A DNA stretch of 10,812 bases from an uncultured cyanobacterium. GTDB lineage: Bacteria; Cyanobacteriota; Cyanobacteriia; Cyanobacteriales; Microcystaceae. Every line of letters begins with the position of its first letter. The first letter of the stretch is position 1. A program made the position numbers and the translations under genes. Below are positions 1 through 10,246 of the stretch, in pieces. Location: positions 1-10,812 of the forward strand of contig CAWEDJ010000107.1 of NCBI GenBank assembly GCA_963807635.1, in the 5' to 3' direction. The notes under the pieces are model-generated. The model ran no database searches. It saw only the letters and a list, made by a program, of their open reading frames with translations, and had not been told where the DNA came from.

Positions 1-36
1 ATTTCAATCGGCGATCGCGTCTGAATAGAAATCTTT

Positions 37-488: not shown

Positions 489-591
489 AATCGTATTTTT
501 TAAAATTCATTCAAAAGATTAATAACATTAATTAATAAGTACATATTTCAAAGCTTATAAACTTTATTTTTTGTCAGGAAATTCTGTTTTC

Positions 592-1551
592 TCAATTATT
601 GATACTTTCTATAACTAACTCATTATCTTGTTTGGTAAGCTTATTATAGAGCCGTTCCGTGTGGGAAAAATTCGCGACGGGTAAAATTGGGAAACGACGG
701 TAAGGAACCGTACCTTCACCAAATAATTGTCGGTATTCTAGGCTATTAACCATTGACTTAATAAAAGCACGAATGCCTTAATTGGCCAAAATTTGGTTAT
801 ATTTCTGGATTTCTTTTTGGTTGAGGGGCGCACGACCGAGGAAATGCTTCGTTCCCAATTCAATTACCTTCGTATTGGGGAAAGGAGCATAGAATTCCTT
901 GATATACAGATCAGAGACTCCCAAACCTTCAATAAACTCTTTAACGTTAATTTCACGATTGCTAAGTTTACTTTCTAGTGCGGTAAATTCAGTCTCAATA
1001 ATAAAAGTCTCAAGATCACGCTCGAAAATTTGACGATATGCGGCACGCACAGTTGTTTGAATTGCCACCTTATCCGCCATCGTTAACAACTCAAAGACTT
1101 TGGACTGCTCGCGCTGAACCGTAATCCCTTGATCGATGGGAGATTTAGTATCAGATTCGGTGCGAGTATCAAGTTTTCTTAATATTTGCATTTTCTCGAA
1201 GTGAGAATTTAAAAATTCTTCATTCAAACTATTTTCTTTACCATTTATGCTTTCTTGACGGTAAAGTGGACTCTGTAAAACAGGATCATAATAACTTTTA
1301 GTATTCTCTCTTTGTTTTTCTTCATTAATAGAGAAATTGTTTGAATCCAATCGTCTAACTTCACTCCAAGCAACGAAACCAATCCCTAGACAGACAGTGA
1401 CTGATAAACCAAAAGCTGAAGGGCGACCAGCCGTTACCAAGAGCATGACAGCAAACCCTAAACCCACTTGACAAGTTTGTTTAACTAAAGATTGCAAATT
1501 TGATTTAGCTTCCTGATAATGACTGTTTTGATTTCGAGAGGCAATGGTCAT
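592..1551 (-). CDS. Chimeric protein: N-terminal transmembrane hairpin, polar linker and ApcE-derived C-terminal phycobilisome linker (REP, PF00427-type) domain; in-frame TAA at 778-780
   Basis: ORF 778..1551 contains [13 protein letters not shown]...[12 protein letters not shown]...[69 protein letters not shown], recognisable as the last ARM/REP of ApcE. The same frame continues past the TAA for 61 codons ([55 protein letters not shown]...) to TGA at 592-594, completing the ApcE C-terminus. Residues ~29-62 are hydrophobic. An RBS-like GGGAGA precedes the ATG. Confidence 0.85.
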
Positions 1552-1563
1552 AAATTTTCTCCC

Positions 1564-1944
1564 TTACTTTCGCCGAAGATTTTTTAAATCTACGATAAAA
1601 CGAGCAATAATTCGTCCTGCAAGAATAATCCAGAGTAAAAAGTCTGATGTGACAATGATAAAGCAAGCATAGCGAGAAGGGCCAAGAGCATTTTCTTGTA
1701 AACAGATATCAAAACTGGAAAAATCTTTGCCTATGATGATCTTACCAATGAAACTGGGAATCTGGAGCAAAAGACCCAACGCGATCGCATCCTGAATTGT
1801 GAGATAAAAAGTTTTCCACAAATCTCCCAATAAACGCTGTCCAACAAGATCGATTGGTTCCAGAATATTGTCCAAAAATCTTTCAATCCGTTTGCCCCAG
1901 AGAGATTTCGGCGGACTTGAGTTAGGATCTGGGGTTTGGCTCAT
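1564..1944 (-). CDS. Hypothetical small membrane protein (126 aa, about 2 TM helices)
   Basis: Clean ATG-started ORF with hydrophobic segments AIALGLLLQIPSFIGKIIIG and YACFIIVTSDFLLWIILAGRIIARFIV, two Cys around the loop and a basic C-terminus. Its stop lies 12 bp before the next ATG (1551). Confidence 0.75.
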   Translation of the reverse strand: MSQTPDPNSSPPKSLWGKRIERFLDNILEPIDLVGQRLLGDLWKTFYLTIQDAIALGLLLQIPSFIGKIIIGKDFSSFDICLQENALGPSRYACFIIVTSDFLLWIILAGRIIARFIVDLKNLRRK

Positions 1945-2097: not shown

Positions 2098-3158
2098 TTA
2101 CTCTAAATCTCCCTCTTCCTCATCATCAGAAGAAATCGGTAAACTCAAAGAGCCAATTTCTAACTTTTCACGGACTTGCTTTTCTACATCCACCATGAGT
2201 TCAGGACGTTCCTCAAGGTATTTCATCGCATTGTCCCGACCCTGGGCAATATTTTCACCGTTGTAGCTATACCAAGCTCCCTTACGCACTATCACATCTG
2301 TCCGTTCGGCTAGATCTACCAAACAACCGACTTGGGAAATTCCCGATCCAAAAAGAATATCAAATTCAGCAATACGGAAAGGCGGCGCAACTTTATTTTT
2401 AGCCACTTTGACCTTGGCCCGAATCCCGTATTCTCCTTCTGTCCCTTTTTTCAGCGTTTGAATACGACGAATATCTAACCGTACCGACGCATAAAATTTC
2501 AGCGCATTTCCCCCAGTGGTCACTTCGGGGCTACCGTAGGTGACACCGATTTTTTGACGTAATTGGTTCAAGAAAATGACGACACAACCTGATCGCCCGA
2601 TATTACCCGCAATTTTTCGGAGAGCCTTACTCATCAAACGAGCTTGTAAGCCCATCTGGTTATCTCCCATTTCTCCCTCGATCTCTGCACGGGGAACCAA
2701 AGCCGCAACGGAATCTACCACAATCACATCGACAACAGAGGAGCGCACCAATTGATCAACAATTTCTAGGGCGGTTTCTCCCGTATCAGGTTGGGCAACT
2801 AATAAATTCTCAATATCCACTCCCACTGCGGTGGCATAGACAGGATCTAGGGCGTGTTCTGCATCGACAAAAGCCGCGACTCCCCCCGCTTTCTGAACTT
2901 CGGCCAGGGCATGGAGGGCAAGGGTCGTTTTTCCTGAACTTTCTCGACCGTGATCTCTACAATTCGTCCTTTAGGAAAACCACCTCCCAGGGCTAAATCG
3001 AGGGTTAGGGACCCCGTAGAAATCGTTTCTACCCGCATCTGAATGGCATCGCCTAAACGCATAATTGAGCCTTTGCCAAAACTCTTCTCAATTTGATTGA
3101 GAACCACATTGAGGGTTTTATCTCGATCAGAAATATTGGTTGTGGTAGTGGTAGCCAT
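2098..3158 (-). CDS. recA: Recombinase RecA (~353 aa when repaired), 1-nt deletion at ~2951
   Basis: [38 protein letters not shown], then in the shifted frame [34 protein letters not shown], followed by [40 protein letters not shown] and KNKVAPPFR. The minus strand reads ATC-_AC-GGT-CGA-GAA-AGT-TCA-GGA-AAA-ACG where IYGPESSGKT is expected. Confidence 0.98.
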
Positions 3159-3215: not shown

Positions 3216-3366
3216 GCTTATTTGAGGAGAGACTCGTGGTAAGATTTTTAGGAAAATTCAGCCGAAGATTCGCCCAATAAAATTGGTTTTTCGTGACTTC
3301 TAAATCCCAGGGAGCCTTTAGAACAGATTAAGATAGAAGAAATAAACCTAGCGTAAAATATTGCGA

Positions 3367-4664
3367 ATGATCACCTCCCTGGCTCCTCGATTGAATGCAC
3401 CAACTGTTCACACTCTTCCCAATGGTTTAACGATTATTGCCGAACAATTGCCTGGGTCAGCCGTTAATCTTAATCTTTGGTTAAATGTCGGCTCGGTTCT
3501 AGAAGATGATTCGATCAACGGGATGGCCCATTTTTTAGAACACATGATTTTTAAGGGAACCCCCCGCTTGGCTAGTGGGGCTTTCGAGAAGGCGATCGAG
3601 GAACGGGGGGCTGTGACCAATGCCGCAACGAGCCAGGAATATACCCATTACTACATCACGACGGCTCCCAAGGATTTTCGGGATCTGGCTCCTTTGCAAT
3701 TAGAAGTTGTCCTTAATGCCAGTATCGCGGAAGAATCCTTTGCGAGGGAAAAATTAGTTGTGTTAGAAGAGATTCGTCGCGCTGAGGATAATGCCCAACG
3801 TCGAATTTTTAATCAAGTGGCGCAAGTGGGTTTTGAAAATTCTCCCTATTGTCGCCCCGTTTTGGGATTAACGTCCATTATTGAACAACTCCGACCCCAG
3901 CAAATGCAGGACTTTCATGCCCATTGGTATCAACCCAATGCCATGACCGCCGTCGTGGTGGGAAATTTGCCGACAGAAGATTTGATTGCAACCGTAGCCG
4001 ATAGTTTTGCCCAGACCTATACGATTAAGTCTCCTTCTCAGGTTTTACCCATCCCAATACTAGAACCAATTAAACCGTTTGAAACGATTATCAGTCGGGA
4101 TTCTGTGGATGAAAGTATTCAGCAATCTCGTTTAATCTTGATGTGGCGGGTTCCAGGGTTAGCGCAACTGAAGGAAACCTATGCGTTGGATGTTTTAGCT
4201 GTGATTTTAGGCAAAGGTAAGGTTTCACGCTTATTTCGGGAATTACGGGAAGAAAAAGGTTGGGTTTCTTCTATTAGCGTCAGTAATATGACCCAGGGAA
4301 ATCAAGGGTTATTTTATATTGCGGCCCAATTACCGACGGAAAATATTTCTAAGGTGGAAGCGGCGATTTTAGCGCAAATTGAAAAAATACAACTGGATTT
4401 AATGACTGAATCCGAATTGAACCGCATTCGTACCCAGGTTGCTAACCGTTTTATTTTTGGGAATGAACGAGCCAGCGATCGCGCCAATCTGTATGGTTAT
4501 TATTATTCTCAATTGCAAACCTTAGAACCCGCTTTTAATTATCCCCAGGAAATCCAATCTTTGCAAAGTGAAGATATGCGAAAGCGGCCCAGAAATATCT
4601 CTCCAGTGAGGCCTACGGTCGGGTAATTGTTCGTTGTCCTTTAATTATGAATGAAAATTGCTAA
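3367..4664 (+). CDS. M16 (pitrilysin/insulinase) family zinc metallopeptidase, 1-nt deletion near the C-terminus
   Basis: LPNGLTII, GMAHFLEHMIFKGT (HXXEH), NAATSQEYTHYY, EKLVVLEEI and SRLFRELREEKG. Adding one A at ~4581-4583 restores the typical ending KAAQKYLSSEAYGRVIVR..., with a stop at 4662-4664. As given, the ORF stops at 4626. Confidence 0.93.
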
Positions 4665-7058: not shown

Positions 7059-7607
7059 ATGCGGTCAAATGTTGATTCTCAGAAAATCGAACAACTCATG
7101 GAAGCATTAGGTAAAGAAGCTCGTAGTTCAGGTTGTATCTACTTTACGGGCGGTGCTAGTGCTTTACTCATTGGTTGGCGCAGTTCTACTGTTGATATAG
7201 ATATTCGTCTAGATCCAGAACCATCAGGCATTTTTCAAGTGATCGCCAAGCTCAAACAAGAATTGAACATAAATATTGAACTTGCCTCCCCGCAGGACTT
7301 CTTGCCACCTCTTCCAGGATGGCGTGATAGAAGCGTATTCATTGGTAAACGAGGTCAAATTTCGTTTTATCACTATGATTTTACAGCCCAAGCTCTTTCT
7401 AAATTATCCAGAGGATTTGACCGCGACATTAAAGATATTGAGGCTATGTACGCTCAGAAATTATTCTCTCTGAGTAAGCTACGCGATTGCTTTGAGGAGA
7501 TTGTACCTGAAATAATTCGATTCCCCTCTCTTAATTCTGATGTACTTAGAAGCAGAGTCGAGAACTTCATCGAGCGTTTTGAAGATCAAGGGTCGGAGGA
7601 GCAATAA
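7059..7607 (+). CDS. DUF6036-like nucleotidyltransferase (Pol-beta superfamily, AbiEii-related), putative toxin
   Basis: IYFTGGASALLIGWRSSTVDIDI gives the hGG...T.DhD NTase signature. The C-terminal ALSKLSRGFDRDIKDI matches the K..R...RD..D motif of AbiEii/DUF6036-type enzymes. Confidence 0.8.
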   Translation: MRSNVDSQKIEQLMEALGKEARSSGCIYFTGGASALLIGWRSSTVDIDIRLDPEPSGIFQVIAKLKQELNINIELASPQDFLPPLPGWRDRSVFIGKRGQISFYHYDFTAQALSKLSRGFDRDIKDIEAMYAQKLFSLSKLRDCFEEIVPEIIRFPSLNSDVLRSRVENFIERFEDQGSEEQ

Positions 7608-7909
7608 TGAGTCTCAATGATTTGCCAGGAGCCGAGATAATATTACCTGGATTAAGTGATCTTCACAATGGTGAGTCCAATACAATTGGAGCTTTACTAG
7701 TTGCGATCGCAGTAACACGCTTAACTGAAGCAGGTTTAGATATTCCCAAAGATCACCTAGCCTCAGAGCCAGAGCTAACTTTGTATGCTCGTCTCCAAGA
7801 CGAACGAGATGATGCTTATCCTTACTATAATGCTTTACTGAATCGCCTTAATAGCTTTTGTAATGCACTTGAACTCAGGTATCAATATAAGCCGTCTAAC
7901 AATGCGTAA
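7607..7909 (+). CDS. Hypothetical 100-aa, probably helical protein translationally coupled to the nucleotidyltransferase
   Basis: TAATG stop/start overlap at 7605-7609 with GGAGGAG upstream. Acidic, amphipathic sequence (PELTLYARL, YYNALLNRLNSFCNALE). Confidence 0.75.
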   Translation: MSLNDLPGAEIILPGLSDLHNGESNTIGALLVAIAVTRLTEAGLDIPKDHLASEPELTLYARLQDERDDAYPYYNALLNRLNSFCNALELRYQYKPSNNA

Positions 7910-7952: not shown

Positions 7953-7992
7953 TTTGAAGTCGGGGATTTTTGTTTTTTATTTAAGGAATTTG
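7953..7992. repeat. Direct repeat, right copy; overlaps the last codons of the GH57 gene
   Basis: TTTGAAGTCGGGGATTTTTGTTTTTTATTTAAGGAATTTG. The segment TTAAGGAATTTG is the reverse complement of CAA-ATT-CCT-TAA (Q-I-P-stop). Confidence 0.9.
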
Positions 7993-10246
7993 TACCAGAA
8001 TCAAATTATCTTCGGGAAGATAACTATGAAATTCTCCTTGATCTGCCAGCATTGCGATGAGATGGAAAGTCGTGTTGGGTTCTTGGTGTAAATCAGACCA
8101 GGGAAGAGCCAGTTCTAAACATTCATTAAAGGCAACTTGAGCTTGGGTATGGCGGGGATGCCAAACAAAGGGAGCCGCAACTTCTTCTAACCAAACTGAT
8201 TTATTCAGTAAATTAATACCCAAATGGTGATGAAAATAGTAATTCACAATCGGTTCGTCGGGGAGTCCTGCGATCGCGGCTGGGCTATTGGGACGGGGGC
8301 TACCAGGGTAATACCAAAATAAATGAAGCTCATTGGGGGTATTCGGTTTGAGGTCAAGGTTGGTTTTAAAGTCTGCTCTAAAATTTAATCGACAATAAAA
8401 ATTTTGATGATTTACCCCATAGTAAAGTCGCTGAACTAAGGTGTTTTGGTGCATCGTTCCCTTTGCGCCACCGATTTCAATTTGTCCCGCTTTTTCCCAT
8501 TCTTCTTCCTCACCAATGCCATTAATAATCGGTTGAATAAAGGCTTCAGGTTGTTGAAAGGCTTTTTTAGGATATTTTTCTAGGGGTTGATAAAGATAAT
8601 TGGGAATCGGTTCATTCAGAGCGCGATAGAGAGTGCAGAGATGTTCTCGAAAAAGTTGATCAAAGATTTCATCCTGATGACTGGAATGACCTTCGCCAAA
8701 CCACCAAAACCAATCTGAACCTTCGGCGGCATAAAGAGCTTCCCAAACTTCGGGGTTATTGTCTTCGGTAGCTTCGGGATGATTTGCTAATACCTGACGG
8801 GCATCAATCAGATAATCCCAAGCTTTATTTTTAATGGGATCACCAATCCAAGTTTTCAATGTTCCGTCAATCCAGGAACCTGTATGCAGGTGATCGCGGG
8901 GAATGGTGTGGGTGGGAGGAAATTGGTCTAGAAATTCGGAGACGGTAACCAGTTTAAATTGATCGGTATGGCTAAATTGTTCATAAAGACGAGTCAGAAA
9001 GGGTAAGCCGTCCTGGGCATAATTTTCCCAACAATTTTCACCATCTAGGGCAATGGTCACCAGCCAGGGTTGTTGGAGATGGGTTTTACTCGTCAAACTT
9101 TCTCGTTGCGCCAGGGAAGCCGCGATCGTCTCCAAATGACCCAGCAAATCCTGAACCGCTTTTTCAACAGACATTCCACTATAGGTAAAACCAATTAAAT
9201 CCGAAAGTCGATGGTCACGAAAAACGATTCCTAAATCTCCATCAGGAGTTTCCAAGCGATAGGGTTGATAAAGTAACTCTGGTTCGGTTAAATTCCCTGT
9301 TTCGTCTCGATGAAAAAAATGCTGTAAAGTGCAAGCCAAAACCATTTCATCAGAACAAAGCCACTTAAACCTTGCCTGAGCAACATCCGCTAAAATTGCA
9401 GGACTCACCGCCTGTTCCGACGGGCCAAAGTCCCCTAGCCTCACAACCAAAGCGATCGCGATAAATAGCCTTAGCTTTTTGCAAATGGCGAGCAATATCC
9501 TCTGACCAACAAAAACGAGGTTCAGGTAACTTCATTTTGGGAACCGCAACCCGCCCCGCAGTGGTATCCGCTAATAGAGGTAAAATCGGGTGACTATAGG
9601 GACTAGTGGTGATTTCCAGTTGTCCCGCTTCCTGCATTCGTCGATGTTGGGGAATAATTCGTTGAATAATTTGTCGTTGTTTGGCAATGATTCGTTGGCG
9701 ATCGCTGAGAGAAAAAATTTTACCCTGTTTTCCCCAAGCCTGTAATTCTTCATCATCTTGCCAAAAAAGCGGATCAATCCAAGCCAGATTATGCCAAGCC
9801 ATCAAATCACAGTAATCCTGGATCGTCCAATTTTCTAAACACCAAGTTATCCCTTCTGTGTGGCGTTGTTCGTAGAGTTCTTGATAACGGGGATGGGGCG
9901 CAATTAAGGTGCGATGGTGAGCATTGAAAAAATATTCCAGAATTTTTAAACGATGTTCCGTCGTAATCTGCGATTCTGGCGTGATGGTTAACGCTAAATA
10001 GGGATCAATCGCGTTTCCTGCGGCATAATCCTCTAATTGTAAAATCAGAGAAGGAACCAGATTAACCGTTTGATGCAATTTTGGGTAACGTTTTAGCAAC
10101 AACACCAAATCCAAATAATCCTTTGTCCCATGCAACCGCACCCAGGGAAGGCGATAATTACCCGCCTCATTTCCCAAGGATTGATTAGATTTATACAGGG
10201 GTTGATGCTGATGCCAAATAAAGGCAATATAGAGCGGATAGGACAT
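7981..10246 (-). CDS. Glycoside hydrolase family 57 (amylopullulanase/alpha-amylase-like, ~754 aa when repaired), 1-nt insertion at ~9422-9424
   Basis: GH57 conserved regions WHQHQPLY, LPWVRLHGTKDY, EITTSPYSHPILPLL, GLWPSEQ (nucleophile Glu, split by the frameshift: TGG-CCC-G-TCG-GAA), IALDGENCWE (acid/base Asp), GSWIDG...WIG and AEGSDWFWWFG. Confidence 0.93.

Follow-up and report, generated by a model that had tools for sequence, protein, structure and literature searches.

The phycobilisome core linker ApcE (LCM) contains two to four REP domains joined by ARMs, and the membrane anchor of the linker CpcL is C-terminal. Passages of PMC13436157 describe CpcL as docking the rod on PSI via a transmembrane helix, and ApcH as a core-extending linker of Anthocerotibacter that is built from ApcE-like REP domains. 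Phycobilisomes are also targeted by cyanophages, and nblA genes carried by phages act there, as stated in part of PMC12695635. In the plant NLR pairs RGA4/RGA5, Pik-1/Pik-2, and RRS1/RPS4, the extra domain of one partner is thought to derive from an effector target (a section of PMC9528084). Among the systems with which cyanobacteria and other multicellular bacteria counter invaders, the portion of PMC8195603 consulted lists pentapeptide, TPR, HEAT, STAND NTPase, caspase, HTH, and FGS domains. The locus described here is a two-gene modular cassette in which a constant module is joined to swapped tails, one of them derived from ApcE.

The window, i.e. the whole stretch of 10,812 nucleotides analyzed, contains a chimeric gene on the minus strand (gene B, 592-1551) that joins a hydrophobic hairpin and a polar linker to the last ARM, REP3, and tail of ApcE. 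The constant N-terminal module (aa 1-68; 1348..1551, minus strand), delimited on an alignment of 23 modules whose profile retrieves 266 representatives at 50% identity, comprises an amphipathic helix and a hydrophobic helical hairpin with a G-x-P turn and basic residues on either side. The hairpin spans aa 26-63 (KD-19 peaks of 1.48 and 1.64), the family-average hydrophobic segments start at ~aa 26 and aa 44-47, an AlphaFold model places helices at 8-39 and 46-73 (pLDDT 70), and all hydrophobic windows of the ORF lie within aa 21-66, so that the N-terminal hairpin noted in the preliminary description is well supported. Its polar spacer was also recovered, as a stretch of ~60 residues (1168..1347, minus strand) that corresponds to the linker of a cargo-free allele (proteins P0062, P0064, and P0086). 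The captured apcE fragment follows in frame (613..1165, minus strand) and encodes the last ARM, REP3 (PF00427, aa 160-286, E 4.6e-30), and most of the C-tail, in agreement with the earlier assignment from position 1165 leftwards; its best stretch corresponds to the third REP of solved ApcE chains (e.g. 7EYD and 7SC7), and its DNA is 85-86% identical to the apcE genes of two congeners. The right junction (555..612, minus strand) leads back to the 3' end of the cargo-free allele, with the stop codon at 592-594, and is 86% identical over 44 bases to the tail of the empty site that is preserved in the metagenome contig L055. Neither a PB domain nor an apc or cpc gene is found among the window's 14 ORFs of at least 80 aa, as had been stated previously. 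Searched separately, the REP part is ApcE, whereas the hairpin is not an anchor specific to apcE and instead belongs to a constant module that occurs with many tails.

Gene B had been read as one open frame from 592 to 1551, a reading that overlooked an in-frame TAA (778-780, minus strand; codon 258, inside the REP) and does not hold; the listed ORF is therefore 257 aa long. In the seven database alleles that reach this codon, it encodes Q in six and D in one. The TAA is probably, though not certainly, a consensus or assembly error, since the assembly is rich in errors and the very same stretch is damaged in the apcE of the genome itself. Signs of indel errors in the window include the splitting of two genes that we take to be recA-like (2098..3158, minus strand) and glycoside hydrolase-like (7981-10246, minus strand), the latter being split over frames; a presumably M16 peptidase-like gene (3361-4626, plus strand) has an odd C-terminus. 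In its 3' part, the genome's own apcE (contig C18 of assembly G000) is interrupted by three TGA codons and one TAA as well as by several indels, and one of the stops falls on the same codon as the window TAA. Its identity to the genes of two congeners is 93-99% and decreases to 86-88%, accompanied by many indels, in the captured stretch only (C18:5475-6030). As judged from this pattern, the corruption is likely an artefact of cross-polishing between paralogues during consensus building, and the same cross-talk may be the source of the stop in the window. An apcE is thus present elsewhere in the genome but carries stops and indels over the shared stretch. A dN/dS calculation against this copy was dropped, given its drop in identity there, and the congener apcE genes served as references instead.

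The preliminary description had allowed for a chimeric read or assembly near 1165-1200, which is not borne out, as the junction is crossed by two short-read contigs, each from a different run of the same study (X1, 1034-1354; X2, 1042-1222, with 2 differences) in a comparison covering 7 of the 24 listed sequencing runs. The proposed joining of an apcE 3' end to a membrane module is therefore real. With the 257-aa query, we found two full-length relatives of 311 aa each, P0002 (93%) and P0003 (80%), so that the search for the same architecture elsewhere yielded 6 + 2 further fused proteins in two 90% clusters, drawn from ENA and JGI records, with one member present on 29 contigs and another (P0123) ending at 250 aa. 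Both clusters have a frameshifted tail after the REP. In 30 other genomes, none of the matches listed covers both parts of the protein.

Directly upstream of gene B lies gene A (126 aa; 1564..1944, minus strand), which belongs to no known family. According to an alignment of 19 sequences and hydropathy, it encodes an amphipathic N-terminal helix and two predicted TM segments (~aa 53-71 and 91-113), and its inter-TM loop contains an invariant Cys81 and a near-invariant Cys94. In 50 of 51 locus rows, or 45 of 46 once five duplicates are removed, gene A and a B module share a strand and lie within 150 bases of each other; in the sole exception a contig end cuts the locus, with the last 23 codons of gene A still visible. 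Among 401 genomes of the order, 36 encode gene A, 38 the B module, and 35 (~9%) both. The carriers include Crocosphaera, Pannus, Moorena, Sphaerospermopsis, Anabaena, Tychonema, Tolypothrix, and one Leptolyngbyaceae genome. The Leptolyngbyaceae allele (L098) places the cassette outside the sampled order, and its tail, read by eye, ends in a LuxR-like HTH. Gene A was not found in any of the five congeners searched (84-99% complete), which hold other genes 3' of recA, and in two sequencing runs a contig joint from 441 to 1975 bypasses the cassette. The distribution of the cassette is patchy between species and polymorphic within them, as is typical of conflict genes.

Neither gene A nor the B module is assigned to a Pfam, NCBIfam, or PADLOC family. 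Gene A and the window's gene B match 0 families among the PADLOC 2.0 models at E 0.001, and in a PADLOC scan of 87 proteins one B allele has a weak match in its tail (E 5.5e-4). No relatives of gene A were found in viral contigs. Its structure model is weak (pLDDT 65) and has no match in the PDB by Foldseek at E 0.001; in the ESM Atlas, gene A finds a single cyanobacterial cluster without a name (0.98), plus two leads below 0.9, and the B module has no usable match. A complex prediction for aa 12-126 of gene A with the B module (score 0.10, mark 0.32) weighs neither way. Among alleles, dN/dS ranges from 0.10 to 0.29 for gene A and from 0.07 to 0.60 for the B module (66 codons; mostly near 0.2), values that indicate purifying selection on both. 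The two hydrophobic segments per protein, the basic flanks of the B hairpin, and the lack of an obvious signal peptide by eye suggest that A and B are located in the membrane with the tail of B in the cytoplasm. In each of the three RNA-library runs examined, contigs extend over gene A (X10) or over both gene A and the module (X17 and X18), and one contig of 1599 bases in X17 leads from gene A across the module into an ApcE-remnant tail; these contigs could also originate from DNA. The apcE junction of the window is uncovered in the RNA-library contigs, a lack of cover that is uninformative.

The tails of gene B differ strongly between relatives. A search with residues 1-125 retrieves 25 proteins of 171-545 aa, of which those with the closest modules (85-95% identical) carry unrelated tails; close alleles end in an ApcE REP, ribosomal S3, an FGE-sulfatase, DUF29, a helical domain, pentapeptide repeats, or the linker only. 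A Pfam scan of 122 of the best 150 of the 266 representatives (20 of at most 117 aa, 7 already seen, and one 1905-aa repetitive match were left out) assigned the tails to pentapeptide repeats (n = 39), DUF6232 (n = 8), DUF1822 (n = 3), and 12 families found once each, with 60 tails having no family. The single occurrences include caspase, NACHT/AAA_22, AAA_35, double-GTPase, CyanoTRADDas_TM, sigma-70 r4, NfeD, DUF1508, RTX, and DUF2690 domains, as well as a whole CpcC-like linker (P0204). In this last protein, encoded on one Logan contig of 1971 bases, the module is followed by a complete CpcC-like rod linker with a CpcD domain, which points to a second, independent capture of a phycobilisome linker and, if real, would represent a rod linker anchored at its N-terminus. 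Short forms of B are also found, with 18 of 149 representatives being at most 110 aa long and 80-aa tail-less forms persisting in Moorena. Three genomes in which the main module copy is the 80-aa tail-less form encode a second, divergent module in open frames of 389-750 aa (G216:C1:7363684, G275:C159:100902, and G369:C1:7822219). In three genomes (L067:6441-7758, L072:6014-7238, and L073:3535-4771), gene B is followed by an additional pair, a 203-212-aa gene without a Pfam match and a pentapeptide-repeat gene.

How such tails arise can be followed in five metagenome contigs, which were picked by module peptides alone and hence blind to the downstream sequence. One of them (L059) has a pentapeptide tail. 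In L055, ~700 bases that run from rpsC across the intergenic region into the start of rplP are inserted in the linker (~1285-1291), with both flanks kept. Two deletions in L056 leave short ApcE remnants that are followed by a helical domain of a multicopy family, and in L058 the sequence between the module and the ApcE tail is deleted, with an FGE-sulfatase fragment following; the deletion point of both contigs in the linker is ~1324. In L057, a deletion fuses the module to the neighboring DUF29 gene, and the proteins P0114 and P0145 are similar in-frame DUF29 fusions. All seven rearrangements in the four rearranged contigs (three insertions and four deletions) are in sense orientation and in frame, for which the chance under random frames is ~6e-5, in a small sample and with microhomologies that can favor the frame. 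The rearrangement junctions have 0-5 bases of microhomology. Six bases flank the apcE insert if the left side of the window is combined with the right side of L056. We considered whether this reflects a target-site duplication; as the rpsC insert is equally readable without one, we claim no capture mechanism or enzyme. The genome contains five reverse-transcriptase matches, with no link to the cassette locus seen; paired matches (a 598-aa frame and a second one, split in C75) occur at G000 C46:16083-18270 and C75:2687-4879.

Selection on the captured sequences was estimated as dN/dS from pairwise and three-point distances. Compared to the nearest native genes, the window apcE has a dS of 0.61-0.65 and a dN/dS of 0.10, against 0.02 for natives at a similar distance, and the three-point distances give a dN of 0.062 and a dS of 0.42 for the window branch vs. 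0.004 and 0.19 for the congener G003; the window values also cover the period that the sequence spent as a native gene in a donor outside the sample. Within the fragment, the REP core has a dN/dS of 0.06-0.07 (95% interval 0.02-0.14), possibly lowered by assembly cross-talk in the form of partial polishing towards the native gene, and is indistinguishable from natives (0.05-0.06). The ARM and tail have a dN/dS of 0.15-0.16, with 15-16 replacements vs. 0 for G003 and G004 against G001. Judging by these rates, the REP fold seems to have been kept, with the ARM and tail relaxed. A dN/dS near 1 against the congener genes, as would mark a non-functional copy, was thus not found for the REP core, and together with the dS of ~0.6 this makes the young, non-functional chimera considered earlier a poor fit. 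Seventy-four columns are conserved in 95% of the native sequences (n = 97). Here, seven of the eight fused alleles have 4-7 changes, and the eighth, a mosaic, has 2, compared to a mean of 0.82 and a maximum of 5 in the natives; the changes in fused alleles cluster in the ARM and the PTLPAANFPN tail. The flanks of empty and filled sites differ by ~15%, less than the apcE divergence, suggesting a capture from another species. The rpsC tail has accumulated 16 replacements and 12 silent changes (pN/pS 0.45), with 0-1 replacements in native genes, and the ApcE remnant of L058 (35 codons) differs from the window by 9 replacements and 1 silent change, so that some tails look near-neutral.

The split recA-like gene, interrupted by one indel (one gap compared to the congener G004), forms the fixed upstream flank of the variable site, and a DUF29 gene (PF01724; 37..490, minus strand), also split here, lies beside gene B. 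Octamers of the sequence GCGATCGC, which we take to be HIP1, bound the variable region 3' of recA at window positions 11-18, 1781-1788, 1991-1998, and 2059-2066, and the same octamer, GCGATCGC, flanks the different content of G004 at this site. Farther away (7059-7909, plus strand), a DUF6036 nucleotidyltransferase (182 aa) and a 100-aa ORF without a family, with overlapping stop and start codons, look like a toxin-antitoxin-type pair. Across genomes, the neighbors of the cassette vary by genus and are often housekeeping genes, with some Uma2-type, PDC-M32, and GmrSD-type genes. The defense-like neighbors are mostly Uma2-type PDC-S03 matches, and this family is abundant among cyanobacteria.

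Two small, predicted membrane proteins that form a conserved pair with a patchy occurrence and one hypervariable in-frame tail fit a conflict system best. We therefore tentatively regard the cassette as a conflict or anti-phage sensor-effector pair of the membrane in which the tail, here REP3 of ApcE, is a captured bait. In such a system, A and B would act together in the membrane with the B tail facing the cytoplasm; DNA fragments would enter at breaks in the AT-rich linker and be trimmed by microhomology deletions, and in-frame products would be retained by selection. An invader protein attacking the host original, such as a phycobilisome linker or ribosomal S3, might then also engage the membrane-tethered copy, and this engagement might trigger membrane damage or growth arrest through the A/B pair. 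The bait function is favored by the retention of the REP fold together with the loss of its native context (ARM and tail), as expected of a decoy. Many of the tails also belong to domain types named for counter-invader systems in PMC8195603, and fragments of apcE, cpcC-like, and rpsC genes would be sensible baits if they worked as the integrated domains of plant NLR pairs are believed to (PMC9528084); the attack of cyanophages on phycobilisomes fits as well. It is weakened by the persisting tail-less forms, the near-neutral tails, the mixed neighborhoods, and the absence of a match to the defense models searched, and the most frequent tails may do no more than reflect which domain families are most expanded in cyanobacteria, which counts against it. 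The more specific proposal of a cyanobacterial immune cassette that captures in-frame pieces of essential host genes (phycobilisome linkers and ribosomal S3) as decoys for phage effectors, and gains new specificities in this way, is rather unlikely as it stands, and we would put no more weight on its extension by analogy, namely that the cassette might be a bacterial counterpart of the plant integrated-decoy receptors that swaps its baits within one lake population.

Doubtful, but the best of the alternatives, is the idea that gene A and the B module do the work, in a membrane function or as a selfish toxin-antidote pair, and that any folded, soluble, in-frame tail suffices to stabilize or space B, leaving the REP without a specific role. 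Unrelated tails on modules of 85-95% identity, their origin from abundant or ordinary genes, the near-neutral rpsC tail and apcE remnant, and the purifying selection on gene A and the module would all be expected, and maintenance of a fold could explain why rearrangements stay in frame and why the REP core is constrained. However, tail-less alleles exist and persist, which makes a folded tail dispensable, the repeated swapping of one working tail for another needs a cause, and phycobilisome linkers were captured twice independently.

That the site is a neutral junk pile next to recA, and that codon 258 is a genuine stop which makes the window copy a pseudogene, is unlikely. Such decay would account for the TAA, the frameshifted tails that follow the REP in the clusters of P0002 and P0003, internal stops in 7 of 41 gene A matches, and the split DUF29 gene alongside, but it leaves unexplained the in-frame bias of the rearrangements, the low dN/dS (well below 1) of gene A, of the module, and of the REP core, and the contigs over gene A or gene A and the module in three of three RNA runs (possibly of DNA origin).

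The idea put forward in the preliminary description, a new type of phycobilisome anchor in which REP3, tethered to the membrane, would bind allophycocyanin and anchor or titrate the core cylinders, mirroring CpcL, is unlikely. The native-like dN/dS of the REP core agrees with it, as do the 62-72 of 74 highly conserved columns that are untouched (2-7 changed), the full-length fusions in two clusters, one with a member on 29 contigs, and the independent fusion to a CpcC-like linker on one contig (P0204); as the fold seems to be kept, however, the constraint on the REP core counts equally for the anchor and for a bait. The fusion is confined to a single lineage (0 of 30 other genomes with a match to both parts, among the matches listed), and the REP was deleted in frame and replaced at least twice in sister alleles. 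In addition, seven of the eight fused alleles exceed the native mean at conserved columns (4-7 changes vs. 0.82), and the module, which has no apc or cpc neighbor, is always paired with gene A and not with antenna genes. A widespread cassette in which the module is the constant part, with many unrelated tails and repeated in-frame loss of most of the REP, thus argues against a dedicated anchor. Finally, a fusion created by assembly, for which a noisy assembly and the corruption of the genome's own apcE over the same stretch could be cited, is hardly credible given the independent short-read contigs across the junction, the eight further ENA and JGI proteins with the fusion, and the derived deletion alleles on record.

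The locus allows the birth of chimeric genes to be observed through empty, filled, trimmed, and refilled alleles with junctions at base-level resolution. If the tails are indeed baits, as we tentatively favor, their catalog would be a natural list of host proteins attacked by cyanophages, and the cassette would become a sensor programmable by tail swapping. Should allophycocyanin binding by the REP persist, the fusion would represent a one-step origin of a CpcL-like anchored linker.

The cassette is not a form of ApcE, CpcL, or ApcH, nor does it belong to a curated defense family. No description of either gene was found in open-licence PubMed Central and bioRxiv text, a search that unnamed hypotheticals and survey supplements could escape. 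Compared to ApcE, B carries as its tail a direct copy of the terminal ARM, REP3, and C-tail, but the window protein lacks the chromophore-binding PB domain (only PF00427 is found, and aa 1-125 match unrelated proteins), has a single REP without REP1 and REP2, and combines a foreign membrane module with a relaxed ARM and tail. ApcH resembles it in its ApcE-like REPs, yet is a structural subunit with tandem REPs, whereas the window protein carries one REP on a module with swappable tails. With CpcL, it shares one PF00427 domain and a predicted membrane anchor, but the anchor is an N-terminal hairpin of an unrelated family, the linker domain is derived from ApcE (E ~2e-22 to CpcL vs. 1e-136 or better to ApcE), the NCBIfam CpcG1-4 scores are 76-102 at cut-offs of 420-440, and the fusion is not conserved across genomes. 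The SLATT 2TM effectors offer one sub-threshold SLATT_1 match on the module of 1 of the 122 representatives (E 6e-5, 23.5 bits vs. a cut-off of 26.3), with no domain above the cut-off. The TRADD-N, EAD, and ternary systems overlap with the cassette in their domain repertoire (pentapeptide, TPR, HEAT, caspase, STAND NTPase, and FGS, as listed in part of PMC8195603), whereas the cassette has no TRADD-N, EAD, or core NTPase and includes fragments of essential single-copy genes among its tails. The plant NLR pairs are unrelated by homology and differ in having NB-ARC and LRR domains, A and B being two small, predicted bacterial membrane proteins, but they share with the cassette a host-derived domain that varies between alleles (apcE, rpsC, and cpcC-like on the same module), a likeness that would be a purely functional analogy.
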